A DNA stretch of 64,000 bases from Candidatus Poriferihabitaceae bacterium (lineage in GTDB: Bacteria; Pseudomonadota; Gammaproteobacteria; Arenicellales; Poriferihabitantaceae), in assembly GCA_965226545.1 (NCBI GenBank), contig OZ245364.1:1771890-1835889 (forward strand), read 5' to 3'. This document shows positions 1 through 19,542 of the stretch, one piece after another. A model generated the notes under the pieces. The model did not search any database, was not told where the DNA came from, and saw only the letters and a list, made by a program, of their open reading frames with translations. Position 1 is the stretch's first letter. Each line of letters begins with the position of its first letter. Made by a program: the position numbers and the translations under genes.

Positions 1-1228
1 GGCGCGGTTTTTCGAAGCCGTAATATTGCGCGGCCCACATTTGATGCTGCCCGACATCGGAGGTAACAAACGCTTCGCCGCGCGTCACCTGCATCATTTT
101 TTGCACGACATATTGCGGCTTAATCACCGTGTCGCTGGGTTCATACGCAAGCGAATCCACCGCCTTCCATTGGTTAACCTCGCCCCACCAAGCATCGACC
201 GCCGCGCGGTCAATCTCGCCGACGCGCGGCTTGATGCGCGCGAGCATATCGGTCAACACCTCGGCGCAATGCCCGACAATCGGCACTTCGACCGGCACGT
301 TTTTGCCTATCGACGAAGGGTCGATGTCGATTTGCACGATGCGCGTGCCCGGCGAAAATTTTCCCAAATCGCCGGTTACGCGGTCGTCAAACCGCGCGCC
401 GACCGCCAACATCACGTCGCAATCGTGCATCGCCATGTTGGATTCATAAGTGCCATGCATGCCGAGCATGCCGAGAAAATGCGGGTCGGATGCGGCAATC
501 GCGCCCAGCCCCATCAACGTGGTGGTCGCCGGGAATTTCAGCAACGCCAACAATTCGCGCAACGCCGACTCGGCCTCGCCGAGTATCACGCCGCCGCCGG
601 TGTAAATAATCGGCCGCTTGGCTGACAACAATAATTCGACGCCGCGCGCAATCTGCCGCCCATGCCCCTTGTGATGCGGCTGATACGAACGCATCTCGAC
701 GCTGCGCGGATAATGATATTCGGCGCGCTCGTTGGTGATGTCCTTGGGGATGTCGACCACGACCGGCCCGGGGCGCCCCGAAGCGGCGATGTAAAACGCC
801 TTCTTCATCGTCACTGCGATGTCTTCGACGCGCTTGACCAAAAAATTATGCTTGACGCAAGGCCGGGTGATGCCGACCGTATCGACCTCTTGGAAGGCGT
901 CGTCGCCGATTAATGTCGACGGCACTTGCGCGGTAATCACCACCATCGGAATCGAATCCATATAGGCCGTGGCGATGCCGGTCACGGTGTTGGTCACGCC
1001 CGGCCCCGAAGTCACCAACACCACCCCCGGCTTGCCCACCGACCGCGCATAACCGTCGGCGGCGTGCGTCGCCCCCTGCTCATGGCGCACCAAAATGTGC
1101 TTCACCTTATCCTGCTTGTAAAGCGCGTCATAAATATGCAGCGCCGCCCCGCCCGGATACCCAAAGATGTACTCAATATTCTCGTCCTGCAAACAACGAA
1201 CGATGATGTCAGCGCCGGTTATTGTCAC
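1..1228 (-). CDS. ilvI: acetolactate synthase (acetohydroxy-acid synthase) large subunit, N-terminal about 409 codons; the gene continues past the window start
   Basis: Minus-strand reading from GTG at 1228 gives MTITGADIIVRCLQDENIEYIFGYPGGAALHIYDAL..GVTNTVTGIATAYMDSIPMVVITAQVPSTLIGDDAFQEVDTVGITRPCVKHNFLV..RPGPVVVDIPKD, the classic ThDP/AHAS pattern. The frame is open to base 1, so it is absent from the ORF track. Confidence 0.85.
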   Translation of the reverse strand, partial: MTITGADIIVRCLQDENIEYIFGYPGGAALHIYDALYKQDKVKHILVRHEQGATHAADGYARSVGKPGVVLVTSGPGVTNTVTGIATAYMDSIPMVVITAQVPSTLIGDDAFQEVDTVGITRPCVKHNFLVKRVEDIAVTMKKAFYIAASGRPGPVVVDIPKDITNERAEYHYPRSVEMRSYQPHHKGHGRQIARGVELLLSAKRPIIYTGGGVILGEAESALRELLALLKFPATTTLMGLGAIAASDPHFLGMLGMHGTYESNMAMHDCDVMLAVGARFDDRVTGDLGKFSPGTRIVQIDIDPSSIGKNVPVEVPIVGHCAEVLTDMLARIKPRVGEIDRAAVDAWWGEVNQWKAVDSLAYEPSDTVIKPQYVVQKMMQVTRGEAFVTSDVGQHQMWAAQYYGFEKPR

Positions 1229-1363
1229 AATGCACTCGCGGATTGAATGGTCGAATTTACGCAACGGATTGGATGTGGGGGAGTATAGCGTAAATGTGGG
1301 GGTGGGGACACAACTGGCGGGGGTGAGTCGGGTGTCATCCATGCTCGATGTTGTTGCTTAGGT

Positions 1364-1924
1364 CTACCTTGGAACTTTCGTCGAGATTTTTTTCCGCAAG
1401 TCATCAGGCGACAATACCTCGACGTTTTCCAGCAATTGTTTGCCGATTACGCCGGTTAAATCGCCCCGTAAAGAATCTTTCATGTTGTCGAAATATATTT
1501 TGTCATCGTCGCTTTCCATTTTTCCGGCGACAAGCCAAAACTCGAATGCTCGATGCTCGAACAGTTTTTTTGCCTCGGTGTTTTTTGCCGATAAACGACA
1601 CAGCACCAGCATTGAGCCGTATGCTTTGAGTTGGTTTTCATCGCGAATTCGTTTGTTGACGATGTCATCTTTATCATTATCATCTAAGCAAGAGTACTCG
1701 TCTCGCACCATAGTGACAGTGCTCAACAAATCCGTTTCTTCAAGAAGAACAACGGCTTGATTGGTCGCCACAAAATAGTCACAACAATGTACTGTGCCTA
1801 ATCCAACATCGTCGCGCATATCAGTTGGCTCTCCAGACCCATCCATTCGATAGGCCGGATATTTACTTTTAATCTTTTTTTCACCGACAACAATCGGCTC
1901 CCTGTATTTTTCGAGTGACATCAC
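1364..1924 (-). CDS. hypothetical 186-aa protein, translationally coupled partner of the downstream twin ATPase
   Basis: ORF track entry. Its ATG overlaps the stop of the 1921-3312 ATPase by 4 nt. It is AT-richer than the flanks. I recognise no domain; there is a weak E..DxD pattern (IVVGEKK .. CLDDNDKDD). Confidence 0.6.
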   Translation of the reverse strand: MMSLEKYREPIVVGEKKIKSKYPAYRMDGSGEPTDMRDDVGLGTVHCCDYFVATNQAVVLLEETDLLSTVTMVRDEYSCLDDNDKDDIVNKRIRDENQLKAYGSMLVLCRLSAKNTEAKKLFEHRAFEFWLVAGKMESDDDKIYFDNMKDSLRGDLTGVIGKQLLENVEVLSPDDLRKKISTKVPR

Positions 1925-3312
1925 AACCCCGCCGTATACAAATCAGCAAAGGGTTTGGTCAATTCTCTTTTAATCGCCGCCATTTTGTCGTCAAAATCTT
2001 GACCATCAGCATCTTCGTTGTTAATCGGAAACTTGTTTAGGGCGATTAACTCTTTAGCATCAGGATTCTTTTTGGCATGCACTTCCAGCCATTTAAGAAT
2101 ATCCGGGCTGTGGGTGGCGATGACGACATGCACACCTTTTTCGGCGAGTGCAAACAAAGCCTTCGCCATAGTAACCTGCCACTCCGGATGAAGGTGGGCT
2201 TCCGGTTCATCAATGAAGAGAATGGAAGTCTCGTCCAATACTTTGCGTTCAATCAACAAAGCCAATACACCAAGATTAGTGGTGCCCATCGCAGTCGTCG
2301 ACAACGGAAACTTGCGTCCATTTTCCACAAACAGCAAGTTACCATCATCTGCAATAGTAATTTTTCCGCCCATCACTTTGTCCCCGGTCAAATTTTCATA
2401 AACATCCGAGAAAGCCATCTCACCTGTTTGGTCGAGTCGCAACGACCGAGCGAGGTCATAAAAATATTCCGGGATTCCAGTGATTCGCTTTCTCGCACTT
2501 AGCCAGTTCCACCCGCCAAGACGAACATCTTCCAAGGCATTTTTTAATTTCCAGTACACTGGAGACTCGAGATATGCAACTCTGGAGTATGCCTGCAACT
2601 CCATCAAGCCAGCGTGACTCATGTCAATACGAAACCTATTGTTTTCGATTTCCAGCATACCCAAATTGTCGATGTCAACCTTGGCTATCTGGTCTTTATT
2701 GCCCAGCAAATCCACAAGGTTTGGCACTTGGAAATTCTGAATCAGATTACTTGCAATCTTAGATTGCATTCCTTGTGCCAACAAATCCGAGGCGTTAACC
2801 TCCTCAAGGATTTTTTGTAAATTACCCAACTTTTCATCCAGTTCTTCCCAATATTTTTTAAAATCGTCTGCCGAAATCAACAAAGTTCTTTCGAGATTGC
2901 GCGGACATTTTCGAATGCCATCAATAGCATTTCGCACAGTTTCAATTTCTCGGATGATTTTTTGAGTAATTTCTTTAATCTTCCCGACATTATCAGCGGT
3001 AAAATTCTTAAATGCGTCTTCAATTTTTGCAATATGTCCAAAAATTGAGTTCACTTCTTCGTCCTCCAACTCGTTCATGGACAAAAACCGCATCATCTTA
3101 CCGAACGTGCGCGTTTCAGTGACAGGTTTCATTAAATTTTTAAAGTAAACGTCCGCATGATTCGCGTTCATCGCATCGAAAATCGAATACATCAACTTCG
3201 ACACAAAACTTTTGCCCGTGTTGTTAGGACCAGCAAGAACGGTAAACTGCCCGAACTCCAACTTGGCGTCGGTCAATTTACCAATATTCTTAATGTGAAC
3301 ATTAAATTTCAT
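1921..3312 (-). CDS. ABC/AAA15-type ATPase with intact motifs and a long helical insertion (SMC/OLD/PARIS-AriA-like architecture)
   Basis: Walker A is LAGPNNTGKSF. The C-terminal half carries STTAMGTTNLGVLALLIE, Walker B plus D-loop ILFIDEPEAHLHPEWQ, and H-loop IATHSP. The roughly 300 aa between the motifs are charged and helical. Confidence 0.8.
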   Translation of the reverse strand: MKFNVHIKNIGKLTDAKLEFGQFTVLAGPNNTGKSFVSKLMYSIFDAMNANHADVYFKNLMKPVTETRTFGKMMRFLSMNELEDEEVNSIFGHIAKIEDAFKNFTADNVGKIKEITQKIIREIETVRNAIDGIRKCPRNLERTLLISADDFKKYWEELDEKLGNLQKILEEVNASDLLAQGMQSKIASNLIQNFQVPNLVDLLGNKDQIAKVDIDNLGMLEIENNRFRIDMSHAGLMELQAYSRVAYLESPVYWKLKNALEDVRLGGWNWLSARKRITGIPEYFYDLARSLRLDQTGEMAFSDVYENLTGDKVMGGKITIADDGNLLFVENGRKFPLSTTAMGTTNLGVLALLIERKVLDETSILFIDEPEAHLHPEWQVTMAKALFALAEKGVHVVIATHSPDILKWLEVHAKKNPDAKELIALNKFPINNEDADGQDFDDKMAAIKRELTKPFADLYTAGL

Positions 3313-3342
3313 TTCGTTGCGTATCCGGTTGCGGGCGCGGCG

Positions 3343-3373
3343 ATTATAGCACTTTAAACATCACCTCTTGCAA
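3343..3373 (-). promoter_or_regulatory. candidate sigma70 promoter with extended -10 in the spacer between the two ATPase paralogues
   Basis: The minus strand reads TTGCAA-19 nt-(TGc)TATAAT, about 30 nt upstream of the ATG at 3312. The 19-nt spacing is long, which is partly offset by the TGn extended -10. Confidence 0.35.
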
Positions 3374-3394
3374 ACAAAACACCCACCGCCCCAC

Positions 3395-4786
3395 CTACAA
3401 CTCAACCAAATCCAAATCCGTAAACGGCTTAACAAATTCCTTTTTAATCGCCGTCATCTTTTCGTCAAAATTTTGATGCGCGGCTTGTTCGTTGTTGATC
3501 GGGAATTGGTTGAGGGCGATTAACGCCTTGTCCTGCGGGTTCTTTTTGGCTTGCACTTCCAGCCATTTAATAATGTACGGGCTGTGGGTGGTGATGGCGA
3601 TGTGTACGCCTTCGGATGCCAAGGCGAACAGCGTTTCGGCCATTAAGACCTGCCACGCGGGATGCAGATGCGCTTCGGGTTTGTCGATGAACAGAATCGA
3701 GTTTTCGTTTAATAGTTTGCGCTCCATCAACAACGCCAACATGCCGAGATTAACGGCGCCGGCGGATGCCGACAGCAGCAATGATTTGCGCTTGCCGGCA
3801 AATTCCCATTCGCCGTAATCGGGCACTTCGATTTTGCCGTCGATGGTTTGCTTGCCGGTTAACTTTCGATGCAATTCCGCAAACGCCGGGCGCCCGCTGC
3901 GGCCGGCTTTCAACGCATGCGCGAGGTCGTAAAACGATTTCGAAACCCCGTCGGCGTTGTCGTATAAATGCACATTGCGCAATTCGCGCCGGTTGAGATG
4001 AAAATATCTCAGCGATGGCATCAGTTGCCAATGCACCGCGGAATCCAAATACCACACATTGCAATCCGATTGCATTTGCGGCAAGGCGGCGTGGCTGATG
4101 ACGTTTTGCAAATCGCCGTTTTGGATTGCAAACATTTGCATCTCGCCGATATCGACCGAACTCGGCTTGCGTCGCTTGCTCGGCAACTCGGCGACACTTT
4201 TTACCTGAAACGCCTGCTGCATATTGTGGTCGAGTTGATGCTGTACGCCGCCGTCCAAAAAATCCGCAAAGTTGGTTTCCTGCAACGCCGTTTGCATTTC
4301 GCGCAGACGGTCATCGAATTCCTGCCAGTGTTTATTGACATCGCGCAACCGCACCGGCAACGTGCGTTCGTTTTCCTCCGCAGGGCGATGCAAATCCTCG
4401 GCGGCTTCGCGGATGGCTTCAACGTTTTCGATAATGCCGGCAATAATCGCGTTAAATTCATCGACATCATCCGCGGCAAAATCGGTAAACGCCGTCTCCA
4501 TTTTTTCGATGTTGTCAAAGATAATGTTAACTTCCTCGACATCCGATTTGCCAAAGGTCGAATAATTAATTTCGCGCAACAAATGCGCGCCGGCCACCGG
4601 GCGGAATAATTTGCGCAAATACGCATCCGCGTGATTCGAGTTAATGGCGTCAAAAATCGCATGCATCAACTGCAATGCAAAACGCTTGCCGGTATCGTTA
4701 TGCCCGACAAACACGGTAAACCGCCCAAACTCCAATTTGGAGTCGGTCAATTTACCAATGTTCTTAACATGAAAATCGAGTTTCAT
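3395..4786 (-). CDS. ABC/AAA15-type ATPase paralogue with degenerate nucleotide-binding motifs (predicted catalytically impaired)
   Basis: Same length (463 aa) as and collinear with the 1921-3312 product. Walker A reads FVGHNDTGKRF (Arg where Ser/Thr is expected). Walker B reads ILFIDKPEAHLHP (Lys where the catalytic Glu is expected). The H-loop TTHSP is retained. Confidence 0.75.
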   Translation of the reverse strand: MKLDFHVKNIGKLTDSKLEFGRFTVFVGHNDTGKRFALQLMHAIFDAINSNHADAYLRKLFRPVAGAHLLREINYSTFGKSDVEEVNIIFDNIEKMETAFTDFAADDVDEFNAIIAGIIENVEAIREAAEDLHRPAEENERTLPVRLRDVNKHWQEFDDRLREMQTALQETNFADFLDGGVQHQLDHNMQQAFQVKSVAELPSKRRKPSSVDIGEMQMFAIQNGDLQNVISHAALPQMQSDCNVWYLDSAVHWQLMPSLRYFHLNRRELRNVHLYDNADGVSKSFYDLAHALKAGRSGRPAFAELHRKLTGKQTIDGKIEVPDYGEWEFAGKRKSLLLSASAGAVNLGMLALLMERKLLNENSILFIDKPEAHLHPAWQVLMAETLFALASEGVHIAITTHSPYIIKWLEVQAKKNPQDKALIALNQFPINNEQAAHQNFDEKMTAIKKEFVKPFTDLDLVEL

Positions 4787-4837
4787 TTGGTTGCCTCATA
4801 GTGCGCACGGTAACTTCGAAACGTTAACACAAACACC

Positions 4838-6166
4838 TTACCCCAACCCGCCCTGCAACTGCGCCATCATCCGCTTCATCCCGCCTTTGCCGGCGCGTTT
4901 TAGCATCTTTTGGGTTTGGGTGAATTGTTTGAGCAGGCGGTTGACCTCCTGCACCTGCACGCCAGCGCCGGCGGCGACGCGTTTTTTGCGGGTGGCGCGC
5001 AGGATGTCGGGGCGACGGCGTTCGCCCGGGGTCATGGAATCGATGATGGCGATGTTGCGGGTGAATTGTTTTTCGTCGAGTTGTGATGCGGTTTGGGCGG
5101 CGCGGCTCGGGAGTTTTTCGGCGATGGCTTTAAGCCCGCCCATCTTTTGCATTTGCGCGAGTTGTTCGCGGAAATCGGCGAGCGTGAAGCCTTTGCCGCG
5201 CGCGACTTTGTCCGCGAGTTGTTTGGCTTGTTGGTCGTCGGCTTGGCGTTGGGCGTCTTCGACCAGCGACAGCACATCGCCCATGCCCAAAATGCGCGCG
5301 GCGATGCGTTGCGGATGAAACGGCTCGAGTGCATCGAGACGTTCGCCGACGCCGATGAATTTAATCGGCTTGCCGGTGACATGGCGAATCGACAACGCCG
5401 CGCCGCCGCGCGCGTCGCCGTCGGTTTTGGTCAGCACGACGCCGGTGAATGCAACCGCGTCATTAAACGCGCGCGCGCTGTTGACCGCATCCTGCCCGCT
5501 CATGCTGTCGACCACGAATAAAGTTTCGACCGGCGCGGTGGCGTCGCGGATTTGGCGAATCTCATCCATCATTTGCGCATCGACATGCAAGCGCCCGGCG
5601 GTGTCAATCAACACCACATCCATCGCCATTTTGCGCGCCTGGGTTACGCCGTCGCGCGCAAGTTGCACCGCGTCGACATCATCGCGATGAAAAAATTGCG
5701 CGCCGACTTCATCGGACAATCGACGCAATTGTTCGACCGCGGCCGGACGCTGCAGGTCGGCGGCGACGGTCATCACTTTTTTGCGGCGCTCGCCGAGCAG
5801 GTGCGCAAGTTTGCCGACTGTGGTGGTTTTGCCCGCGCCTTGTTGCCCGGCGACCAACACCACCGCCGGCGGTTCAGCCGCGAGATTTAATTCATCGCAA
5901 GCCGCGCCCATCAACTCGACCAATTCATCGCGCACCACCGCAATCACCGCCTGCGCCGGCGATACGCTGCGCAACACTTCGCCGCCAACCGCGCGCGCTT
6001 TAACGCCATCGATAAATTCGCGCACCACATCCAACGACACATCGGCTTCGAGCAACGCCACGCGCACTTCACGAAGCGCGGCGGTGACGTTGTCTTCACT
6101 CAACCGCCCCTTGCCGCGCAAGTTGCGGAAGGTGGCGGTCAAGCGGTCGCTGAGTTGGGTGAACAT
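4838..6166 (-). CDS. ffh: signal recognition particle protein Ffh
   Basis: MFTQLSDRLTATFRNLRGKGRLSEDNV.., GQQGAGKTTT P-loop, DTAGR, TKTDGDARGG, and a Met-rich C-terminal M domain. Confidence 0.95.
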   Translation of the reverse strand: MFTQLSDRLTATFRNLRGKGRLSEDNVTAALREVRVALLEADVSLDVVREFIDGVKARAVGGEVLRSVSPAQAVIAVVRDELVELMGAACDELNLAAEPPAVVLVAGQQGAGKTTTVGKLAHLLGERRKKVMTVAADLQRPAAVEQLRRLSDEVGAQFFHRDDVDAVQLARDGVTQARKMAMDVVLIDTAGRLHVDAQMMDEIRQIRDATAPVETLFVVDSMSGQDAVNSARAFNDAVAFTGVVLTKTDGDARGGAALSIRHVTGKPIKFIGVGERLDALEPFHPQRIAARILGMGDVLSLVEDAQRQADDQQAKQLADKVARGKGFTLADFREQLAQMQKMGGLKAIAEKLPSRAAQTASQLDEKQFTRNIAIIDSMTPGERRRPDILRATRKKRVAAGAGVQVQEVNRLLKQFTQTQKMLKRAGKGGMKRMMAQLQGGLG

Positions 6167-6444
6167 AGTTGGGTGGGCGTTAAATGACGGTGCGAGTCGG
6201 CGGTATAATTAGCGCGCGGTGTTGCAGTTCGCGCGCGAAATTTTATCGTGACGATTCATTATTAACGATATTAACAATTCGATTGTAAAGTTCACTTAAC
6301 AAAGTTTTTTGTAACATTTGATTGGTAAAAGTTTATTGATACAAGTTTACTTTTAAAGTGCACTTGTAAAGTTTATTTTCACAGTTAAGTTATAACATTG
6401 ATTAACATTACTCACACCATCACTTACACTTCATCAGGTGCGCA

Positions 6445-7299
6445 TTGATGTGGATGATGATTGTTGCCGCGGGGTTGTACAGCGCAATCAGCGCATTGAT
6501 TTGGCGGCGCATTGCCGTCGATGAACGGCGGTTTGCGCGGCGGGCAATTTCATGGGGCGGCTTGCATGCCTTGACCGCCGTCGCCGGCGGATTGCATGGT
6601 TGGCAATTATACCGCAACATCGTCGGTGTCGATGTCTTCAACTTGGCGCTCGGTCATTTCGTATCGTTGGTTGCATGGATGGGCGTTGTGTTGTATTGGT
6701 GCGTTGCGTTGTACAGCCGCCGCATCGCGCGCGCGACCGGCGCGCCATCGACCGCGATTCCATCGCTCGGCGTCATCGTGTTGCCGCTTGGGTTGCTCGG
6801 ATTATTAATTGGCGAGTTGGCGCCGGGCAATGTTTTTTTACTCGATGAATTTGTGCGCGGCATTGGTCGACATTTAATCATCGCGGTTGCCGCGTATGCG
6901 GTGCTCAGCATTGCATTTGCTCAAGCGTTACTTTTATGGCTACAGGAAAAACAATTGCGCCAACCGCGCCCGTCCGGTTTTTTTGCCGCCTTGCCGGCGT
7001 TGCAGACAATGGAGACGACGTTGTTTCGGTTGACGCTGCTCGGTTTTGTATTGCTCAGCGTCAACTTAATCACCGGCATGCGCGCGGTGCTCGAAAACTA
7101 CGATGCATTTTTATTGTTCAATCATCACATCCTTTTCGCGCTGCTCGCTTGGGGCGGCTTCGGTGCATTGTTAAGCGGTCGCGCAATATTCGGTTGGCGC
7201 GGACAAACCGCGGCGAAGTGGACGATGGCGGCATTCGGGTTGTTGGTGCTGGCGTATTTCGGCGCGCGCTTTGTCGGCGGCGTGTTGTTGGCGGGTTAA
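6445..7299 (+). CDS. ypjD: CcsA/YpjD-family cytochrome c assembly-like inner membrane protein
   Basis: Polytopic hydrophobic 284-aa protein divergent from ffh, as ypjD is in E. coli. Confidence 0.7.
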   Translation: MMWMMIVAAGLYSAISALIWRRIAVDERRFARRAISWGGLHALTAVAGGLHGWQLYRNIVGVDVFNLALGHFVSLVAWMGVVLYWCVALYSRRIARATGAPSTAIPSLGVIVLPLGLLGLLIGELAPGNVFLLDEFVRGIGRHLIIAVAAYAVLSIAFAQALLLWLQEKQLRQPRPSGFFAALPALQTMETTLFRLTLLGFVLLSVNLITGMRAVLENYDAFLLFNHHILFALLAWGGFGALLSGRAIFGWRGQTAAKWTMAAFGLLVLAYFGARFVGGVLLAG

Positions 7300-7369
7300 G
7301 GTGTAACTTGAAAGTAACTTGTGACGCATTTATGAATCGCGCTTACGACTCGCACTTGCACCCTGTCGA

Positions 7370-8179
7370 TTAACCCGACACATTCATCGAAGCGTTACTC
7401 GATGCCTTAACCGACGGCGTCGCCACCTGATTGCGCACATAACTTGCGCGCACTTCAAGCGGCGAGATTGCCGCATCGATTCGTTGCGCCGCAATCCGCG
7501 CAACAATTTCGGCTTGCGGATTTCGATTAACGATATGCATCGCCGGCGTCGGCAATTCATTTTGATACGCCGCCCAACCGCCGCCCACCGCCGTCGCCGC
7601 CCCGGGCAACACCAATTCACGCGGCGCGATTAACGACGGCGCAATTAATTCACGCGGCGGTTGCGCAACGTCGACTTGATAATGCGCATAATAAATTTGA
7701 TGCATACGCGCATCGATGGCCGGCAATACGCTGTATGTTTTTTTACCGTCGTGTGCGACTTTGTCACTGTCACTGTTACTGTTACTGTCACCGTCGCTGT
7801 CGGCATTGTCATCACCGTCACTGTTACTGTCACCGTCACCCGTTAACTTTGTTGACTGCGTCACCACCGATTGCGCCAACGCCTCGAGCGAACCAACCGC
7901 AATCACCTTCAACTGCGCCGCATAGCCAAGCCCTTGCGCAACGCCGATGCCGAGGCGCACGCCGGTAAATGAACCCGGCCCGACATCGACCGCAATCGCG
8001 GTTAACGCCGACAATTCGATGTTGCGTTCCGCCAACAACGAATCCACCATCGACAAAATCAACCGCGAATGCGCGCGCGAATGTTCGATGCGTTGCGTAA
8101 GCACATCATCCATCAACAACGCCGCCGAACAACTTTCGGTTACGGTGTCGATTGCAAGCAGACGCGGCGCAGTTGACAT
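7370..8179 (-). CDS. tsaB: tRNA threonylcarbamoyladenosine (t6A) biosynthesis protein TsaB, with a D/S/N/G low-complexity insert
   Basis: LLAIDTVTESCSAALL.., VDVGPGSFTGVRLGIGVAQGL. I prefer the ATG at 8179 over the TTG at 8197. It is adjacent to yoaA, as in E. coli. Confidence 0.85.
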   Translation of the reverse strand: MSTAPRLLAIDTVTESCSAALLMDDVLTQRIEHSRAHSRLILSMVDSLLAERNIELSALTAIAVDVGPGSFTGVRLGIGVAQGLGYAAQLKVIAVGSLEALAQSVVTQSTKLTGDGDSNSDGDDNADSDGDSNSNSDSDKVAHDGKKTYSVLPAIDARMHQIYYAHYQVDVAQPPRELIAPSLIAPRELVLPGAATAVGGGWAAYQNELPTPAMHIVNRNPQAEIVARIAAQRIDAAISPLEVRASYVRNQVATPSVKASSNASMNVSG

Positions 8180-8201
8180 TCGAATAAGTGGAATCAATAA
8201 A

Positions 8202-8272
8202 GTTAATTCGTAAACGTTAATTCACAAACGTTAATTTACAAATGTTAATTCGCCAATGTTAATTCGATAAAC
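8202..8272. repeat. 5 x 14-bp degenerate tandem repeat (GTTAATTCNNAAAY)
   Basis: gttaattcgtaaac gttaattcacaaac gttaatttacaaat gttaattcgccaat gttaattcgataaac, lying immediately upstream of tsaB. Confidence 0.9.
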
Positions 8273-8338
8273 TGCGCGCGACACAGTTCAACAGTTCACT
8301 CGATACACCGCACTCGACACACTTCATCCCGCCAAACT

Positions 8339-10243
8339 TCACTCATTAAAAAACGCCCGCACTTGTTCAATCGATTGACACTTGCGCATCTTCGGCAAAC
8401 TGTTAATAAACGACCGCCCATATGATTTCGACACCACGCGCGGGTCGCACAACACCAACACGCCGCGGTCGGTTTCCGAGCGGATCAATCGTCCGGCGCC
8501 TTGCTTTAATGCGGTCACCGCGGCCGGGATTTGGATGTCGCGAAACGGATTGCCGCCGTCCTGTTCGCAGGCGCGCAGCCGGCTTTTGAGCACCGGGTCG
8601 GACGGCGCGGCGAAGGGCAGTTTATCGATAATCACGCACGACAACCGTTCGCCGGCGACATCGACGCCCTGCCAAAAACTTGCGGTCGCAAACAACACCG
8701 CATGTTCGGCGCTGCGATAACGCGCCAGCAATTCCTGTTTGGGCGCTTCGCCCTGCAAAAAAATCGACCAATCGGCGCGCGCCGCAAAATTTTGATGCGC
8801 GCGTTTCATCATATCGATGCTGGTGAATAAACAAAACGCGCGCCCGCGACTTGCGCCGACGACTTGTTCAATCACTTTGCACAACGCCGATTCAAATTCG
8901 CGTTCGCGCGGCTCGGGCATGTGCGGCGGCAGATACAACAGCGCGTTGTTGGCGTAATCGTATTGACTATCGAAGCGTCGCGTCTCGGCCTCGTCGTCCA
9001 AACCAAGCCGCGCACAAAACGCCGTGAAGTCGTCGCCGACCGCCAGCGTCGCCGAAGTGAACACCCAAGCGACGCGGTTTTGTTGCATCATCTCGGTGAA
9101 TCGTTCGTCGATACGCAACGGCGTTGCGCAAAAGTTAACCCAGCCGTGCCCGATTTGCGCCCACTGCACCCAATCGCCGTCGCGTTGATGCAGCCAAGCG
9201 TCGAGGTTTTCCTGCAGTTGCAAACATCGTTCATGGCATCGCTGCAACGCTTCGCCTTTGCGCGCGGCTTTTTGCAGCAACACTTCATACGCCGCCAACG
9301 CGTGCGTCAATTCGGTGCAGGCGCGCTCGAATGCATCGCTTTGCAATGTCTCCTCATCGACCGACCGCCCGGCGAATTCTTCGGTGACGCGCACAATCGC
9401 CTTGCCGGCTCGATTCAATTCGCGCGCGCTGTCGCCAAAATCCACGCCGCTTTTTTCATCGCGTTCGGCGAGTTTTACATCGTTGGTTAATTCGCCAAAC
9501 TTTGCGGTCGATAACGCAAAGCCAAAAAAATCCGATGCAATGTCGGCGATGGCGTGCGCCTCGTCAAACACCACCGCCTCGGCTTGCGGCAACAATTCGC
9601 CGAAGCCTTCCAACTTCATCGTCAAATCGGAAAAAAACAAATGATGATTGACGACGACGACATCGGCTTTCATCGCCCGCTTGCGCGCCTTGTTCACCCA
9701 GCAATCCTTAAAATCCGGGCATTCGCCGCCCAAACAATTGTCGGTGGTCGAGGTCACCAATTTCCACAACGGCGAATCCTCGCCTATCTCGGCAACCTCG
9801 GCGATGTCGCCGTCGGCGGTTTGCGCAGCCCATTTTTCAATCGCGTCAAACGAATGCGCTTCGGCTTCGCCAATCAATTCGCTCTGCCGCGTATGCACCG
9901 CCAACCGATGCTTGCATAAATAATTCGCCCGCCCTTTCAGCAACACTGCATCGAGCGGTGCGCCCAACACTTTGGCGACTTGCGGCAAATCGCGATGAAA
10001 CAATTGTTCCTGCAGATGTTTGGTGGCGGTCGAGATAATCGTGCGCTTGCCGCTGACCACAATCGGCGCAAGATAGGCGAAGGTCTTGCCGGTGCCGGTC
10101 GCCGATTCGACCACCAATCGCCCGCCGTGCTGCAATGAATCCTCGACCGCCTGCGCCATCTCGCATTGCGCAACACGCGGCGTGAAATTTTCCAGCGCGC
10201 GGTCGAATACGCCATCGGGCGCAAGGGCGGCGGCGGCTTTCAT
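8339..10243 (-). CDS. yoaA: DinG/YoaA-family ATP-dependent DNA helicase (Fe-S XPD-like)
   Basis: ESATGTGKTFAYL Walker A, VVFDEAHA DEAH box, Cys cluster DNCLGGECPDFKDCW, and C-terminal GAGRLIRSETDRGV. Confidence 0.85.
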   Translation of the reverse strand: MKAAAALAPDGVFDRALENFTPRVAQCEMAQAVEDSLQHGGRLVVESATGTGKTFAYLAPIVVSGKRTIISTATKHLQEQLFHRDLPQVAKVLGAPLDAVLLKGRANYLCKHRLAVHTRQSELIGEAEAHSFDAIEKWAAQTADGDIAEVAEIGEDSPLWKLVTSTTDNCLGGECPDFKDCWVNKARKRAMKADVVVVNHHLFFSDLTMKLEGFGELLPQAEAVVFDEAHAIADIASDFFGFALSTAKFGELTNDVKLAERDEKSGVDFGDSARELNRAGKAIVRVTEEFAGRSVDEETLQSDAFERACTELTHALAAYEVLLQKAARKGEALQRCHERCLQLQENLDAWLHQRDGDWVQWAQIGHGWVNFCATPLRIDERFTEMMQQNRVAWVFTSATLAVGDDFTAFCARLGLDDEAETRRFDSQYDYANNALLYLPPHMPEPREREFESALCKVIEQVVGASRGRAFCLFTSIDMMKRAHQNFAARADWSIFLQGEAPKQELLARYRSAEHAVLFATASFWQGVDVAGERLSCVIIDKLPFAAPSDPVLKSRLRACEQDGGNPFRDIQIPAAVTALKQGAGRLIRSETDRGVLVLCDPRVVSKSYGRSFINSLPKMRKCQSIEQVRAFFNE

Positions 10244-10270
10244 GAGTAGTGGTTAATTGGGAGTTGCAAC

Positions 10271-10400
10271 GGTGATGACCGTGACTGTGATTGTGACGAT
10301 GACAGTGACAACGGTGACGATGACGGTAACGACGAGGTTGGAATGAACGAGGTCACTGTCACTGTTAACATTACTGTTACTGTTGATGTCAATCGCAACA
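10271..10400. repeat. hexamer-phased GTN-ACN/GAY degenerate repeat tract
   Basis: ggtgatgaccgtgactgtgattgtgacgatgacagtgacaacggtgacgatgacggtaacgac..gtcactgtcactgttaacattactgttactgttgatgtc. Confidence 0.8.
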
Positions 10401-10496
10401 ATAATAAGTGACTTAACACGTGACACAACGAGTGACCCAGTAAATAAATCGGCAAGCGACTCGGCAACCGACTCGACAATCGATTTAATAAATCAT

Positions 10497-11606
10497 TCAC
10501 GCCGCCAACTCATTCAAAAACCGCTTAATCTTCTCAGCCCATGAATCGCTGCGCGGTGCTTGGCGTTTGCCGCCGGCGGCGACCGACTCGGCGAATTCGG
10601 CGATGAGTTCGCGTTGTTTGGCGGTGAGATGCACCGGCGTTTCGACCGACACTTTGCACAACAAATCGCCGGTTGCGCCGCTGCGCACATTGCGCACGCC
10701 TTTGTCGCGCAGGCGAAACACGCGCGCCGATTGACTGCCGGCCGGCACCTTTAATTTGGCGCGCCCCGACAAGGTTGGTATTTCCAAGGTGCCGCCGAGT
10801 GCCAAGGTTGCAAACCCGACCGGCACTTCGCACAATAAATTGTCGCCGTCGCGCTGAAAAATTTCATGCGCGGCGACGCGTATCTGCACATATAAATCGC
10901 CGCTGCCGTGTTGATTGCTTTCGCCTTCGCCGGCCACGCGCACTTGGTCGCCGTCGTCAACCCCGGCCGGAATCTTGACCGACAACTCGGATTCATCGCG
11001 CACCACGCCGCGCCCTTTGCAGGAGTCGCACGGGTCGGTAATCACCCGCCCGCGTCCTTGACAATGTCGGCAAGTTTGCTGCACCGAAAAGAACCCTTGT
11101 TGCACGCGCACCCGCCCTTGTCCGTTGCAGGCGGTGCAGGTTTTCGGCGACGAACCGCGTCGCGCGCCCGAGCCTTTGCAATCCGCGCAGTTGACCGTTT
11201 TGGCAACGCGGATTTTTTTGGTCGCGCCGCGCGCCGCTTCGAGCAGCGTTAACTCCAACGCATATTGCAAATCGTCGCCGCCGCGCGCGCGCCTTCGCCC
11301 GCCGCCAAAAATATCACCGAAGATGTCACCGAAGATGTCGCCAAAGCCGCTGATATCGACATCGGCGCCGCCGGCCGCGTTTTCGACGCCGGCATGCCCG
11401 AATTGGTCATACGACGCGCGTTTTTTCGCATCGCCGAGCACCGCATAGGCTTCCTGCGCCTCCTTAAAACGCGCTTCGGCGCCGGAATCATTTTGTGCGC
11501 GGTCCGGATGATATTTCATCGCCAAGCGACGATACGCCTGCTTCAACTCGGCGGCAGTCGCACGGCGTTCGACGCCCAACACTTCGTAATAATCTTTTTT
11601 TTCCAT
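10497..11606 (-). CDS. dnaJ: molecular chaperone DnaJ
   Basis: J domain DYYEVLGV..YRRLAMKYHPDR, a G/F region, and four CxxCxGxG zinc-finger repeats. Confidence 0.95.
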   Translation of the reverse strand: MEKKDYYEVLGVERRATAAELKQAYRRLAMKYHPDRAQNDSGAEARFKEAQEAYAVLGDAKKRASYDQFGHAGVENAAGGADVDISGFGDIFGDIFGDIFGGGRRRARGGDDLQYALELTLLEAARGATKKIRVAKTVNCADCKGSGARRGSSPKTCTACNGQGRVRVQQGFFSVQQTCRHCQGRGRVITDPCDSCKGRGVVRDESELSVKIPAGVDDGDQVRVAGEGESNQHGSGDLYVQIRVAAHEIFQRDGDNLLCEVPVGFATLALGGTLEIPTLSGRAKLKVPAGSQSARVFRLRDKGVRNVRSGATGDLLCKVSVETPVHLTAKQRELIAEFAESVAAGGKRQAPRSDSWAEKIKRFLNELAA

Positions 11607-11832
11607 GGGGTAACCGGTGGCGAACTGTGGCGTATGCGGTGCGTTGCGTGAAAGGTTAATGCGTTAAGGGTTAACTTGAGTTGCAATAACGAAGTGAATT
11701 AATTAATAAGTGCGTTAATAAATGTTAACGAGCGAATTAACCGATTCATTAATAGTAAATGTATTAACACAAATGCATTAACATCAAGTGCATTAACAAA
11801 TGAGTCAATTAACCGGCGCGGATGAATGCGCC

Positions 11833-11853
11833 AAAAACGGGGCGCATGCCCCG
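11833..11853 (-). terminator. rho-independent terminator/attenuator between dnaK and dnaJ
   Basis: The minus strand reads CGGGGC-atgc-GCCCCG followed by TTTTT. Confidence 0.5.
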
Positions 11854-11872
11854 CTTCGGTCAACCGTCATCG

Positions 11873-11990
11873 CAATTGTCACGTCAATTGTCACGTCAAT
11901 TGTCACATCAATTGTCGCGCCAATTGCATCGGCGATTGTAAACCCGCTTGTTGGCAATCGTGTTGACAATCGCATTAACAATCGTGCCGA
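11873..11990. repeat. degenerate 12-bp tandem repeat (CAATTGTCACGT-like)
   Basis: caattgtcacgt caattgtcacgt caattgtcacat caattgtcgcgc caattgcatcgg, decaying to caatcgtgttga caatcgcattaa caatcgtgccga. Confidence 0.85.
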
Positions 11991-12016
11991 CAGTTTTGCA
12001 ATCGCGACAAGCGCAT

Positions 12017-13966
12017 TTACGATTTGTCCTTGTCTTTATCCTTGTCACCGACTTCCTCGAACTCAGCATCGACAACATCATCGTCGCCCTTGGCGGCGGC
12101 GTCAGCACCGCCGTCACCGCCGGCTTGCGCATCGTCGCCTTCAGCATTCGCTTGCGCATACATTTGCTCGGCGAGTTTGTGGCTGACGGCGGTTAACGCT
12201 TGGGTTTTTTCGCCAATCGCGGCGACGTCGTCGCCCTTCAACGCCGTTTCCAATTCGCCGACGGCGGTTTCGATGTCGCTCTTTTCGCTCGCTTCGATTT
12301 TGTCGCCCAACTCGCTTATCGATTTGCGCACGCCGTGAATCATCGCTTCGCCTTGATTGCGCGCATCGACCAACTCGCGCGCCTTGCGATCTTCCTCAGC
12401 GTGGGTTTCGGCGTCGGTAACCATCTGCGCAATCTCGGCGTCGGACAAACCGGAACTGGATTTGATGACGATTTTGTTTTCGCGCCCGGTGGCTTTGTCT
12501 TTCGCCGACACGTTTAAGATGCCGTTGGCGTCGATGTCGAACGACACTTCAATCTGCGGCACGCCGCGCGGCGCCGGCGGAATTTCGGTTAAATCAAACC
12601 GCCCGAGCGATTTGTTGCCGCCGGCGACTTCGCGTTCGCCCTGCAATACATGCACGGTGACCGCGCCTTGATTGTCGTCGGCGGTGGAAAACACCTGGCT
12701 CGCCTTGGTCGGTATCGTGGTGTTTTTGTCGACCAACTTGGTCATCACCCCGCCGAGCGTTTCGATGCCGAGCGACAGCGGCGTGACATCCAACAACAAC
12801 ACATCCTTAACCTCGCCGCCCAACACGCCGCCCTGTATCGCCGCGCCCACGGCCACGGCTTCATCCGGGTTGACGTCGCGGCGCGCTTCCTTGCCAAAAA
12901 AATCGGCGACCAATTCATGCACCTTCGGCATGCGCGTTTGCCCGCCGACCAAAATGACATCGTCGATGTCGGTCGCGCTCAACCCGGCGTCGGATAAAGC
13001 GGTTTTGCACGGCTTGAGCGTCTGCTGCAACAATTCGTCAACCAACGCCTCGAGTTTCGCGCGCGTCAATTTCATATGCAGATGTTTCGGTCCGCTTGCA
13101 TCGGCGGTGATGTACGGCAGGTTCACTTCGGTTTGCGCCGAGGACGACAATTCAATTTTGGCTTTCTCGGCGCCTTCCTTAAGCCGCTGCATCGCCAACG
13201 GGTCGCCGCGCAAATCCATGCCTTGATCTTTTTTAAATTCATCGGCGAGATAATCAATCAACCGTCGGTCGAAATCCTCGCCGCCCAAAAAGGTGTCGCC
13301 GTTGGTCGACAACACTTCGAATTGATGCTCGCCTTCGACTTCGGCGATTTCAATAATCGACACATCGAACGTGCCGCCGCCAAGGTCGTACACGACAATT
13401 TTGCGGTCGCCCTTGCCCTTGTCCATTCCATAAGCAAGCGCGGCGGCGGTCGGTTCGTTGATGATGCGTTTGACTTCCAGCCCGGCGATGCGCCCGGCGT
13501 CTTTGGTGGCTTGGCGTTGCGAATCATTGAAATACGCCGGCACGGTAATCACCGCCTCGCGCACTTCCTCGCCGAGATAATCCTCGGCGGTTTGTTTCAT
13601 TTTTTGCAAAATCCGCGCGGACACTTCGGGCGCGGCCATCTGCTTGCCGCCGGCTTCGACCCAGGCGTCGCCATTTTTGGCCTTGATGATTTTATACGGC
13701 ATCAATGAAATGTCGCGCTGCACGACCTCTTCATCAAACCGCCGCCCAATCAATCGCTTGACCGCAAACACCGTGTTGGCCGGATTGGTGACCGATTGAC
13801 GCTTGGCCGCCTGCCCAACCAACACTTCGTTATCCTTGGTGAACGCGACAATCGACGGCGTGGTGCGATCGCCTTCGCTGTTCTCAATAACCTTCGGCGT
13901 GCCGCCTTCGGTGACGGCAACGCATGAATTGGTCGTGCCAAGGTCAATACCGATAATCTTTGACAT
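12017..13966 (-). CDS. dnaK: molecular chaperone DnaK (Hsp70)
   Basis: [18 protein letters not shown].., [22 protein letters not shown], and an acidic tail ending in a KDKDKDK repeat. Confidence 0.97.
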
Positions 13967-14000
13967 GGTGTGCTTTCCTCAAAATTAATGAATCAAAAAA

Positions 14001-14045
14001 GTGTGCGTAAAAGTGTGCGTAAAAGTTTGCATAAAAGTTTACAGC
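14001..14045. repeat. about 3.7 x 12-bp tandem repeat in the dnaK leader
   Basis: gtgtgcgtaaaa gtgtgcgtaaaa gtttgcataaaa gtttacagc. Confidence 0.85.
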
Positions 14046-14090
14046 GACGCCGCATTGCATTAAGTTCAACGGCGCGCTCAGATGCGTTGG

Positions 14091-14120
14091 ATATGCGGGC
14101 GAATTAACGCAATGCAAGTC
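14091..14120 (-). promoter_or_regulatory. candidate sigma32 (heat-shock) promoter for dnaK
   Basis: The minus strand reads CTTGCA-13 nt-CCCGCATAT, against the consensus CTTGAAA-13/15-CCCCATNT. Confidence 0.45.
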
Positions 14121-14257
14121 GCCGCGAAATTGGCTCGGTCGATGATACTCGGTTGATGAGATGGTGACGGTGCTTTAGTTTATTAACGTCGACATTTAAT
14201 GAAACGCGAACCATTAATTAAACGGAAGTGAAGTGAATAAGTTACGAATTAATCGAA

Positions 14258-15013
14258 CTACGCGTCGTTACCGTCGCTTGCGACATCGCCTTGACCGTCA
14301 TTGTCGTTGCCGGCATCGACTTGACCGTCGTTGCCACCGTCGACTTGGTCATCACTTGCACCGCCACCTGCAACATCACCTTGCCCAGCACAAACCACCA
14401 CCATCGCCGGACGCAACAATCGTTCATTCAATGTGTAACCTTTTTGCACGACAGTAACAATATGGTCAGCGGCAATGTCAGGCGCGGCTTCGGTGCCGAT
14501 GGCTTGATGCAGTTGCGGGTCAAACCGCACACCCGGTGCGGCGGCGACTTCAGCGACCGCGAATTTGCCGAGGCTCAAATCGAATTGTTTCAATGTTAAC
14601 GCCAGCCCTTCCTTCATCTGCGTAACCGCATCACCGGCGTCTTGATTTAATTCGACTTCACAAGCACGCTGCAAACTGTCGCGCACGCCAAGCAATTCCT
14701 GCGCAAAATTTTCAATCGCAAACTTACGCGCCGCCGCAATTTCTTTCTGCGACCGCCGCCGAACATTCTCGACCTCAGCACGCGCACGCAAAGATTCATC
14801 TTTGGCTTGTTCGAGCTGCGCCTGCGCCTCGCTTAACTGTGCGGATAATGCACCGTCGGACTCGGCGGCGTCATCGGCAACATCAGCACCATCGACAACT
14901 TTGTCATCACCGACATCGACGTTCCCGTCGTTATCGACATGGTCGCCATTGCCATCGGCAACCGCATCGGTGTGCGCCGATGAATTGGCTTCGGCATCAA
15001 AAGAGTTCATCAC
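14258..15013 (-). CDS. grpE: nucleotide exchange factor GrpE with acidic low-complexity N- and C-terminal extensions
   Basis: Core sequence LRARAEVENVRRRSQKE..FAQELLGVRDSL..GYTLNERLLRPAMVVV. It lies upstream of dnaK. Confidence 0.9.
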   Translation of the reverse strand: MMNSFDAEANSSAHTDAVADGNGDHVDNDGNVDVGDDKVVDGADVADDAAESDGALSAQLSEAQAQLEQAKDESLRARAEVENVRRRSQKEIAAARKFAIENFAQELLGVRDSLQRACEVELNQDAGDAVTQMKEGLALTLKQFDLSLGKFAVAEVAAAPGVRFDPQLHQAIGTEAAPDIAADHIVTVVQKGYTLNERLLRPAMVVVCAGQGDVAGGGASDDQVDGGNDGQVDAGNDNDGQGDVASDGNDA

Positions 15014-15045
15014 AAGTTTAAGTTAAGCGGTGGAGTCACACAAAA

Positions 15046-15075
15046 AAATGGGGGCGCATCGATAAAAGGTCAAGG
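15046..15075 (-). promoter_or_regulatory. candidate sigma32 promoter for grpE
   Basis: The minus strand reads CTTGAC-14 nt-CCCCCATTT, about 30 nt upstream of the grpE ATG. Confidence 0.55.
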
Positions 15076-15092
15076 CGGGAAGTGGCGGACAC

Positions 15093-15425
15093 CTATACAG
15101 AAAACGACGAGCCGCAACCGCAAGTCGTGCTGGCGTTTGGGTTGTTCACTAAAAACCGGCTGCCCATGATGTCGTCCAAATAATCAATCTCGGCGCCGGA
15201 TAAATATTGCATGCTGAGCATATCGACCAACACTTGCACGCCGCTCTGTTCGACTTTCAGGTCGTCGTCTTGCGCTTCGCCGTCGAATTGAAAGCCGTAT
15301 TGAAAGCCCGAACAACCGCCGCCGCGAATGAATACGCGCAACTTCAACGCCGGGTCGCCCTTGTCGGCGAGCAGTTGATGGATGCGCGCAATCGCGCTTT
15401 CGGAAATGGTTAAATCGGTTTGCAT
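15093..15425 (-). CDS. erpA: iron-sulfur cluster insertion protein ErpA (IscA/HesB family)
   Basis: LRVFIRGGGCSGFQYGFQFD and C-terminal CGCGSSF. Confidence 0.85.
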   Translation of the reverse strand: MQTDLTISESAIARIHQLLADKGDPALKLRVFIRGGGCSGFQYGFQFDGEAQDDDLKVEQSGVQVLVDMLSMQYLSGAEIDYLDDIMGSRFLVNNPNASTTCGCGSSFSV

Positions 15426-15630
15426 GGTCGTGAGTGAACGCCGTCAAGTTGGGCGCGATGATGCGCCTTTGCAACACGGCGGCGATTATACTAAAAAAAC
15501 GCGCGCGGCATTGCGTTAAGATGGCGTTGGACGATATGCGCGAATATGATGTTGCGTGCGCGCGATTGCAATGCCGTGCGCCGAGATTGCGCGTATCCGA
15601 CGCCGCGATTATCCAACACAACGCACCCGG

Positions 15631-17229: not shown

Positions 17230-17395
17230 GGGTGGTGGGGTGGCTTTGGTTTGTTGTAATTTTGGTTGGGTTGATTTTGGTTTTAATGGTGATGTGACTT
17301 TATTTCGTGACTTTACTTAATGTGTAGGGGAATTATGTGCGACACGAGAATTGTTAGTGTGACAACTTCAGGAAAAACAAAATGCGTTTGCTTCG

Positions 17396-18441: not shown

Positions 18442-18530
18442 GCGATGCATCGGCGGCGGTTGCGATGCGCATGGGTTGTTGGGATTGGGTACAATCGCAT
18501 GCATGAGTTAACTTCATCGAGTAAACAAAA

Positions 18531-19427: not shown

Positions 19428-19476
19428 TTTTGTATAACCATTTGATGTTTTTTTATAAAAAATTGTGAGAATGTGC

Positions 19477-19505
19477 TTGACTTCTGGATGCTTTGATTAC
19501 ATAAT
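19477..19505 (+). promoter_or_regulatory. candidate sigma70 promoter for the 19543 orphan gene
   Basis: TTGACT-17 nt-CATAAT, followed by a GAGG Shine-Dalgarno 8 nt before the ATG at 19543. Confidence 0.45.
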
Positions 19506-19542
19506 TCCAAACTCACTTAACTCAAATATTGAGGCATCTATT

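Follow-up and report, generated by a model that had tools for sequence, protein, structure and literature searches.

The 64,000-nucleotide (nt) window studied here, a stretch of contig OZ245364.1 from Candidatus Poriferihabitaceae bacterium, carries a cassette of three genes between the core genes ffh and ilvI. Two of the genes encode paralogous ABC ATPases of 463 amino acids (aa), one with intact catalytic motifs (ATPase-2) and one with degenerate motifs (ATPase-1), and the third encodes a small protein whose gene overlaps the end of ATPase-2. A first-pass annotation, made from the DNA sequence of the window, had proposed the trio as an undescribed, defence-like cassette. The coordinates of the open reading frames (ORFs) bear out its description of three co-directional minus-strand genes between ffh and ilvI:

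1364..1924, minus strand: small gene, an ORF of 186 aa from GTG 1924 or 185 aa from ATG 1921
1921..3312, minus strand: ATPase-2, intact, an ORF of 463 aa with GPNNTGKS, ILFIDEPE and THS
3395..4786, minus strand: ATPase-1, the degenerate paralogue, an ORF of 463 aa with GHNDTGKR and ILFIDKPE
4838..6166, minus strand: ffh, an ORF
start at GTG 1228, minus strand: ilvI
3313..3394, minus strand: 82-nt spacer between ATPase-1 and ATPase-2, read directly; left edge of the hypervariable segment
4787..4837, minus strand: 51-nt spacer from the ffh stop to the start of ATPase-1; a GAGG lies 8 nt upstream of the ATG; left cassette boundary
1229..1363, minus strand: spacer separating the small gene from ilvI, where the variable segment has its right boundary

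The cassette is more AT-rich than the flanking core genes, as the annotation had said. The GC content over 1400-3400 is 0.37-0.46 versus ~0.60 in the flanks, and GC content at third codon positions (GC3) is lower in all three genes (ATPase-2, 0.48; small gene, 0.47; ATPase-1, 0.64) than in ffh and ilvI (0.73-0.75). The annotation had also remarked on the lack of an integrase or tRNA gene nearby, and we likewise find no tRNA gene in positions 1-20000 of the window and no integrase-sized gene between ffh and ilvI. A search with Rfam over the whole window (1-64000) gave no family at gathering score, the spacer at 1229..1363 included.

How are the genes of the cassette expressed? The proposed coupling of the small gene to ATPase-2 holds with either start codon, but the 4-nt overlap and the 186-aa length that came with the proposal probably do not. 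Because the homologues begin MSL- and the recorded protein is 185 aa long, ATG 1921 is favoured over GTG 1924 as the start; the overlap with the ATPase-2 stop is then likely a single nt, in the sequence TGATG. The spacer between the ATPases contains, as read by eye, an extended -10-like candidate, TGCTATAAT (3351..3343), with TTGCAA (3373..3368) 19 nt upstream, and together these might form a separate promoter for ATPase-2 and the small gene. A consensus scan for promoters and terminators, in which a promoter spacer of 16-18 nt was required, gave nothing above chance and did not report the TGCTATAAT element. In another strain (L004 in our numbering of loci; 6416-6595) the spacer is swapped for unrelated sequence (18% identity) with a called 59-aa ORF inside it, so that the candidate promoter is not universal.

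The intact ATPase and its small partner as probable relatives of HEC-02

Both ATPases had been described as paralogues of the ABC/AAA_15 type found in systems such as PARIS and Septu, and on this Pfam, PADLOC and Foldseek agree. The two proteins are 45% identical over 460 aa (E 3e-143). Both match AAA_15/AAA_21, the AAA_15 matches being at 3.2e-23 for ATPase-2 and 3.4e-19 for ATPase-1, and for both the top PADLOC match is the HEC-02A model PDLC04214, at 1.6e-32 and 1.2e-28, respectively. For ATPase-2 the runners-up after HEC-02A are PD-T4-4_A, NsnB and AriA, with the AriA models matching at 1e-20 to 1e-24. ATPase-2 has the full set of ABC ATPase motifs for which it was examined: GPNNTGKS, a Q-loop glutamine at Q195, ILFIDEPE and THS. 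An AlphaFold2 model of ATPase-2, with a predicted local distance difference test score (pLDDT) of 81.6, consists of an ABC head, an all-helical Insert 1 (aa 52-194) and a small beta domain (aa 210-248). A Foldseek search with this model returned the OLD protein of retron-Eco8 and, at probability 1.0, PtuA of Septu and of retrons, PARIS AriA and SMC/Rad50 heads. To our knowledge, these closest structures are all head-dimerising ATPases that control an effector. ATPase-2 is presumed to be the sensor and motor of the module.

Comparison with the two best known of these systems is instructive. Septu and retron PtuAB supply the closest solved structures (8eea, 8sux, 9vhe, 9n69 and 9e91; E 2.5e-6 and above, probability 1.0), and there too a small nuclease effector is under the control of an oligomeric ABC ATPase. 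However, the PtuB effector is an HNH nuclease rather than PD-(D/E)xK-like, only the C-terminal ABC core is similar in sequence (E ~1e-5), the TM-scores are only 0.33-0.38, and the system has no inactive paralogue. PARIS likewise combines an AAA_15 ABC ATPase of ~460 aa with one effector, which the ATPase scaffold holds until triggered, but the AriA match is weaker than the match to HEC-02A, there is no twin ATPase, and the effector AriB is a Toprim nuclease, the Toprim motif not being conserved in the family of the window's small protein.

What, then, is the small protein? The annotation had called it Toprim-like, on the basis of E15 (in IVVGEKK) and an acidic run, DDNDKDD, at 81-87. Neither is conserved in 20 close or 74 distant homologues, and no Toprim, OLD or AriB model in Pfam or PADLOC was matched by the family, so the suggestion is set aside. 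The residues that are conserved in the family are D28, C47-C48-D49, E62-x-T64, K100-x-Y102 and C109, and of these D28, D49, E62, K100 and Y102 lie on a beta-beta-beta-alpha core. In the AlphaFold2 model (pLDDT 87.5) the order is strands at 24-26, 50-53 and 57-64, helices over 66-114, and a strand at 126-133. D49 lies just before the second strand and E62 on the third, as expected for a PD-(D/E)xK site. There are faint Foldseek matches to Hjc, XPF, Mus81 and Zip2-Spo16 (E 0.2-1), and a CARF-PDDEXK model matches two family members at 0.004; a single RloB match at 0.022 among the 74 members was judged to be noise. We predict the small protein to be an effector with a nuclease fold of the PD-(D/E)xK type (HEC-02B/NERD-like), as judged from conserved residues and the model. 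Position 64, occupied in a canonical ExK motif by lysine, is threonine in 59 of the 74 family members, with lysine in 7 and serine in 5. The family is small: a word-indexed search of 5.8e9 proteins found 21 relatives, and an exhaustive profile search of 1.84e9 representatives found 240 clusters at 50% identity. One 445-aa protein, P0040, has the N-terminal half of an AAA_15 ATPase (aa 2-226) fused to a small-protein domain (aa 258-437). The fusion may hint at a physical link between ATPase and effector, or it may be the product of a deletion or an assembly artefact.

HEC-02 (Hma-embedded candidate 02) is composed of an ABC ATPase and a NERD-like PD-(D/E)xK nuclease, sits within loci of the Hma (helicase-methylase-ATPase) system, and protects E. 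coli against phages in a manner requiring both genes (Payne et al. 2024, doi 10.1101/2024.01.29.577857). The tested system is that of Dickeya dianthicola NCPPB 3534, with HEC-02A WP_024108366.1 and HEC-02B WP_024108365.1 (doi 10.1101/2024.01.29.577857, Table S2). Like the window pair, HEC-02 is a two-gene operon in which an ABC ATPase gene is followed by an overlapping gene for a small protein of ~170-190 aa, and, again like our family, it is found beside modules of methylase, ATPase and helicase. By BLASTP, ATPase-2 and the tested HEC-02A are 35% identical over 105 aa (E 3e-17). HEC-02A is 342 aa long versus 463 aa here, the extra length being the ~120-aa helical Insert 1, and ATPase-2 matches the HEC-02A profile in two stretches that are split by an insert of ~120 aa. 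The gap between the two groups is spanned by a bridging subfamily, found at metagenome loci, whose ATPases are ~345 aa long and without Insert 1. These short ATPases match HEC-02A positions 5-302 of 338, at 2.6e-40. Their partners are members of the window's small-protein family (E ~1e-24), and they match HEC-02B models weakly, at 0.002 to 0.009, over most of the profile, as well as a CARF-PD-(D/E)xK model. We note that at one locus with such a pair (L018) a second, distant canonical ABC ATPase (8112-9179; GENNTGKS / LIIDEPE) lies just downstream; it probably belongs to a different, adjacent system.

Is the small protein of the window itself related to HEC-02B? When 74 diverse members of its family were compared with PADLOC, there were seven matches to five HEC-02B models, the best at E 1.5e-4, and these made up about half of all sub-threshold matches in the scan; six very distant members gave no PADLOC match. 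In a profile-profile comparison by hhalign with a HEC-02B alignment of 35 sequences, the family scored 21.6 (P 0.012), above each of 200 column-shuffled controls (200/200; mean 13.1, sd 2.4). The profile alignment is collinear, with D28 paired with D23, D49 with D43, E62 with E56 and K100 with K78 (invariant in both families); K100 is in the helix that follows E62. An hhalign comparison with the single tested HEC-02B sequence, at a probability of 2%, was uninformative. The families also differ, as the CC-D motif and Cys109 are conserved in the window family and absent from HEC-02B, and HEC-02 is without a second, degenerate ATPase. As to membership, the window ATPase passes the HEC-02A profile, while its partner fails both the HEC-02B profile and the (D/E/Q)xK motif. 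From these comparisons the pair of ATPase-2 and small protein appears to be a system of the HEC-02 type that has diverged, with a long insert in the ATPase and no ExK lysine in the partner, and not a new kind of system, homologous to HEC-02 in architecture and probably also in descent. The description of the cassette as an undescribed system therefore gives way, for the pair, to that of a divergent relative of a validated one. PADLOC would probably not call the window system, its HEC-02B models giving no match. In all, some ~240 clusters (50% identity) of HEC-02-like systems, with a long-insert ATPase and a Lys-less partner, would appear to have been missed by the profiles searched.

Allele exchange at a site downstream of ffh

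Loci with the degenerate motifs GHNDTGKR and FIDKPE were all on contigs (L004-L006, L008, L009, L090 and L091) in which ffh, ilvI and ATPase-1 are ~99% identical to those of the window. Between strains, identity falls from ~99% to 37-95% over the segment from ~3365 to ~1279, which comprises ATPase-2, the small gene and spacers. At 3365-3312 the fall is from 99% to 18-84%, and from ~1279 leftwards the identity is back to 97-100%. The ATPase-2 alleles are only 55-66% identical as proteins, within flanks of ~99% identity, and their synonymous divergence (dS) is 0.8-1.7 versus ~0.04 in the flanks. Allele identity is lowest at aa ~50-290; for the insert region the ratio of nonsynonymous to synonymous divergence (dN/dS) is 0.24-0.52 and for the head segments 0.05-0.17, with no value >1. 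The alleles of L005 and L090 have a middle region in common (dS 0.02) and differ at their C-termini (dS 1.2), and their partners, of 181 and 243 aa, are different members of the small-protein family. By these patterns, ATPase-2 and the small gene are old mosaic alleles that were brought in by recombination. In one contig of the same species, of 4x coverage (L008, 11968-13954), ATPase-2 is broken into pieces of 147 and 212 aa, the small gene is truncated to 150 aa, and ATPase-1 is intact. Either genuine decay of the active pair or a mistake in the long-read assembly could account for the fragmentation.

The wider contexts of the family were obtained from locus look-ups and from a metagenome scan with an alignment of the ATPase; a scan of JGI metagenomes with motifs of the small protein gave no match. 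In about 18 other loci, among them L001-L003 and L010-L022, a single canonical ATPase gene directly precedes the small gene and overlaps it, and the surroundings of these loci are unrelated. Because these other loci carry one ATPase and the small gene, the functional unit would be the pair, not the trio. Every other lineage sampled has one ATPase per unit, and the trio that was first put forward as the system is better described as a pair with a single-species elaboration, the twin. The first proposal also holds in two other respects: the cassette is of a defence type, built on ABC ATPases like those of PARIS and Septu, and it is accessory, with unrelated contexts in other genomes and strain variability here.

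A second kind of module is found next to the cassette, in which a methylase is accompanied by an ABC ATPase of 582-621 aa and a ResIII/YagJ helicase of ~980 aa. We refer to it as a Type III restriction-modification (R-M)-like block, and it occurs as follows:

L009, 10404-17665: Type III R-M-like block
L091, 1-5372: Type III R-M-like block
L003, 8882-16304: Type III R-M-like block

In L009 and L091 the block sits exactly between the ffh stop and ATPase-1, and the homology of the window with L006/L009 begins at ~4832; the window itself is without the block. L003 is a more distant genome, where a single-ATPase pair follows ffh and is itself followed by the same kind of block. It is because R-M-like blocks and the cassette insert there, in sister strains and in a distant genome, that we regard the site directly after ffh as a defence hot spot. 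The PADLOC matches of the L009 block are MTase_III at ~1e-112 to 1e-118, an AriA/NsnB/mad3-like ABC ATPase, and REase_III at 1e-20; its methylase is split into 386 and 433 aa, versus 810-872 aa elsewhere. We also considered whether the block might be Hma, which has a similar composition, but no Hma model is among the matches listed and the block has been filed as Type III R-M-like. An empty ffh-ilvI junction was not found by an exact-Ffh look-up, which gave twin carriers only, or by a scan anchored on ccsA, which gave one locus whose 50% identity made it too distant for use.

Two observations on the surroundings may be added. The lineage is absent from the species representatives of GTDB, and the nearest match to the ccsA-like gene, 50% identical, is from a sponge-type gammaproteobacterial metagenome-assembled genome. 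The divergent intergenic segment between ffh and the ccsA-like gene (6167-6444) has a GC content of ~0.44 versus ~0.60, and its identity between strains, 89-91%, is slightly below that of the flanking genes.

Might the cassette have a purpose other than defence? An addiction module of the toxin-antitoxin kind, or an ATPase-nuclease pair for repair or housekeeping in the manner of SbcCD or RecF, would suit an ATPase that also resembles SMC/Rad50 heads, a partner without confident annotation, and a locus from which integrase and tRNA are missing. Yet a within-species dS of 0.8-1.7 is not expected of housekeeping repair genes, and the family, with 240 clusters in 1.84e9 proteins, is both rare and patchily distributed and is found in unrelated contexts. 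R-M-like modules, moreover, adjoin the cassette in three loci (L003, L009 and L091), the best profile matches are to defence ATPases, and the relative HEC-02 has been validated. We consider a non-defence role very improbable. At the site directly after ffh, old mosaic alleles of the presumed sensor and effector recombine in near-identical genomes, beside a paralogue that does not vary.

The degenerate twin and a model of the islet

The first-pass annotation had recognised one of the ATPase copies as incompetent, and the lesions are plain: in ATPase-1 the Walker A serine is replaced by arginine (GHNDTGKR) and the Walker B glutamate by lysine (ILFIDKPE). Among the 120 best homologues, non-canonical Walker motifs occur only in the ATPase-1 cluster. 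The changes go well beyond the two motifs. Of 106 alignment columns with at least 95% conservation among 39 canonical ATPases, 27 are altered in ATPase-1 and 0-5 in the canonical sequences. Because the alterations are concentrated at Walker B, the Q-loop, the P-loop helix and the region of the H-loop, it is doubtful that ATPase-1 binds ATP. ATPase-1 most resembles ATPase-2 in its N- and C-terminal head segments (74-80% nt identity).

Where did ATPase-1 come from? Its closest relative in 5.8e9 proteins is the adjacent ATPase-2, at 45% identity, all others being at or below 41%, and a neighbour-joining tree (no support values) places it inside the local clade of ATPase-2, with a branch of about twice the length. 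ATPase-1 is confined to a single species. Tree and nearest relative would fit a local duplication followed by accelerated change. With a GC3 of 0.64, ATPase-1 has come most of the distance to the host value, and a long residence as an open frame therefore seems indicated.

One would think that an ATPase so altered might simply be a relic, the inert remainder of an older copy of the cassette that lost its nuclease, is still undecayed and takes no part in the two-gene system. Destroyed catalytic motifs, changes at 27 of 106 conserved positions, a long branch and a presence in one species only are all as a relic would have them; a single ATPase suffices in every other lineage sampled, and ATPase-2 and the small gene appear to have a promoter-like element of their own. 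However, it is the relic model against which the data speak most clearly. The segregating sites of ATPase-1 in 7 strains are 32 synonymous and 9 nonsynonymous, where neutrality predicts ~1 to 3.8, so that the ratio of nonsynonymous to synonymous polymorphism (pN/pS) is 0.075 (binomial P=9e-15 versus neutrality). Pairwise dN/dS is 0.04-0.11, comparable to that of ffh and ilvI, and dS is the same as in those genes. The twin is fixed in 11 strain contigs. All 11 variants (11/11) are 463 aa long with identical degenerate motifs, differing at 11 positions, mostly conservatively, and the 463-codon frame has thus stayed intact despite a divergence from ATPase-2 that has left 45% identity and a GC3 that both imply long residence. 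Even in the low-coverage contig L008, with its fragmented ATPase-2, ATPase-1 is intact. A relic is therefore quite improbable, and on this evidence ATPase-1 looks like a pseudo-ATPase that is being kept by strong purifying selection, not one that is decaying.

If ATPase-1 is kept, does it work with ATPase-2 or apart from it? ATPase-1 might have an ATP-independent function of its own, as a decoy for phage inhibitors directed at this family of ATPases, as an antitoxin-like brake to buffer nuclease alleles that come in, or as a stand-alone binder or sensor that is co-transcribed with ffh. Purifying selection on a protein without catalytic motifs is what such a function would produce, and the gene does begin 51 nt beyond ffh, behind a Shine-Dalgarno-like GAGG of its own. 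ATPase-1 stays constant while the alleles beside it change, so that it must either suit many partners or require none, and its insert region is unlike that of every ATPase-2 allele. There is a parallel for a brake in PARIS, where the ATPase AriA sequesters the effector (PDB names include 'AriA antitoxin'). On the other hand, the head segments, which form the ABC dimer, are just the parts most similar to ATPase-2, as fits co-assembly; ATPase-1 always accompanies the pair of ATPase-2 and small protein in the strains seen; and a decoy or antitoxin function is without direct evidence. We regard an independent role as unlikely.

Our preferred interpretation, which we hold with moderate confidence, is that the locus is a strain-variable defence islet after ffh, made up of a HEC-02-related pair and a duplicated, selected pseudo-ATPase subunit. 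Infection would be sensed, probably, by the large variable inserts of ATPase-2. By analogy with HEC-02, Septu and PARIS, an ATPase-2 oligomer would hold or license the small effector, and a phage cue, acting through ATP binding or hydrolysis, would cause the effector to be released or activated against nucleic acid. The active ATPase and the putative nuclease are swapped between strains as ancient mosaic alleles. ATPase-1 would have been born by local duplication in one species, with its pocket remodelled by the serine-to-arginine and glutamate-to-lysine changes and by changes at 25 further conserved positions. It would most likely now be an invariant partner that does not hydrolyse ATP and that docks with ATPase-2 by way of the conserved ABC head, forming an asymmetric complex with one working ATP site; alternatively, it may regulate or scaffold the module. 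We read ATPase-1 as a pseudo-enzyme subunit because it is intact under strong purifying selection despite the remodelled pocket, and we favour co-assembly or a regulatory scaffold because the head segments are the most alike and relatives of the fold act as head dimers.

There are heterodimeric ABC proteins with one degenerate nucleotide-binding site, such as TAP1/TAP2, TM287/288 and CFTR, in which the lesions lie at the Walker B glutamate and in neighbouring motifs and the degenerate module is kept by selection. As may be the case here, an impaired ABC module is paired with a competent one. Those proteins, however, are membrane transporters with demonstrated heterodimers, while the heterodimer proposed for the islet is hypothetical, with indirect evidence from the adjacency of the two genes, the purifying selection and the conserved head segments, and the lesions of ATPase-1 also hit the Walker A serine and the P-loop helix, so that ATP binding may be lost.

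A number of observations weigh against the interpretation that we prefer. For the twin, residues near the signature and the Q-loop are changed, which could impair a composite active site. The strains that bear it come from few metagenome samples of one species, so that there is little evolutionary depth to its being 'conserved', and no strain without ATPase-1 was found by the exact-Ffh look-up, all strains carrying the twin. For the effector, the small protein gave 0 matches in Pfam, PADLOC (E<=1) and NCBIfam, and Foldseek of its model against PDB and BFVD, together with a PDB profile search, gave no significant neighbour. The window protein reads E62-E63-T64, and because the ExK lysine is thus replaced by threonine, its nuclease activity is uncertain. 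For the kinship with HEC-02, the HEC-02A match is limited to the head and C-terminal core of a window ATPase that is 120 aa longer, and the hhalign probability for the small-protein family against HEC-02B is only 3.5%.

A competent copy paired with an incompetent one was, according to the annotation, without a described precedent. The literature that we searched holds no case of a degenerate ABC paralogue in a defence system, which is not proof of absence, and this pairing is the only new element of the locus. ATPase-1 may then be a natural pseudo-enzyme that arose inside an ABC-ATPase defence system and was afterwards retained by selection. With its help one can ask whether the oligomers of such ATPases are symmetric or asymmetric, and whether the signal is ATP binding or ATP hydrolysis. 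Payne et al. 2024 (doi 10.1101/2024.01.29.577857) state this to be an open question where the HEC ATPases are concerned.

A more specific version of the model can be imagined, in which ATPase-1 is an obligate 'constant chain' that heterodimerises through its ABC head with any 'variable chain' allele of ATPase-2. We offer this tentatively, and think it rather doubtful. If it were true, the immune ATPase would be asymmetric, with one hydrolytic and one structural site, and recombination would allow a population to exchange its sensor and nuclease alleles while the scaffold stayed fixed. Such an architecture of constant and variable subunits is not described for bacterial ABC-ATPase defence systems.

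Tandem repeats elsewhere in the window

Several tandem arrays lie beyond the cassette. Within tsaB (7370-8197, minus strand), positions 7762-7840 are an imperfect TGTCAC-type hexanucleotide array of ~6.7 copies, also with periods of 18 and 24, which is in frame and encodes a low-complexity insert rich in D, S, N and G (GDGDSNSDGDDNADSDGDSNSNSDSD) in the TsaB-like protein. The length of TsaB varies between strains from 274 to 278 aa, and a polymorphism in repeat length is therefore suggested. Between tsaB and a gene for a DinG-like helicase there is a tandem array of 14 nt x 4.6 (GTTAATTCGCAAAC) at 8202-8266, and two more arrays, of 15 nt x 2.9 and 12 nt x 4.5 (CAATTGTCACGT), are located at 11757-11798 and 11873-11926.

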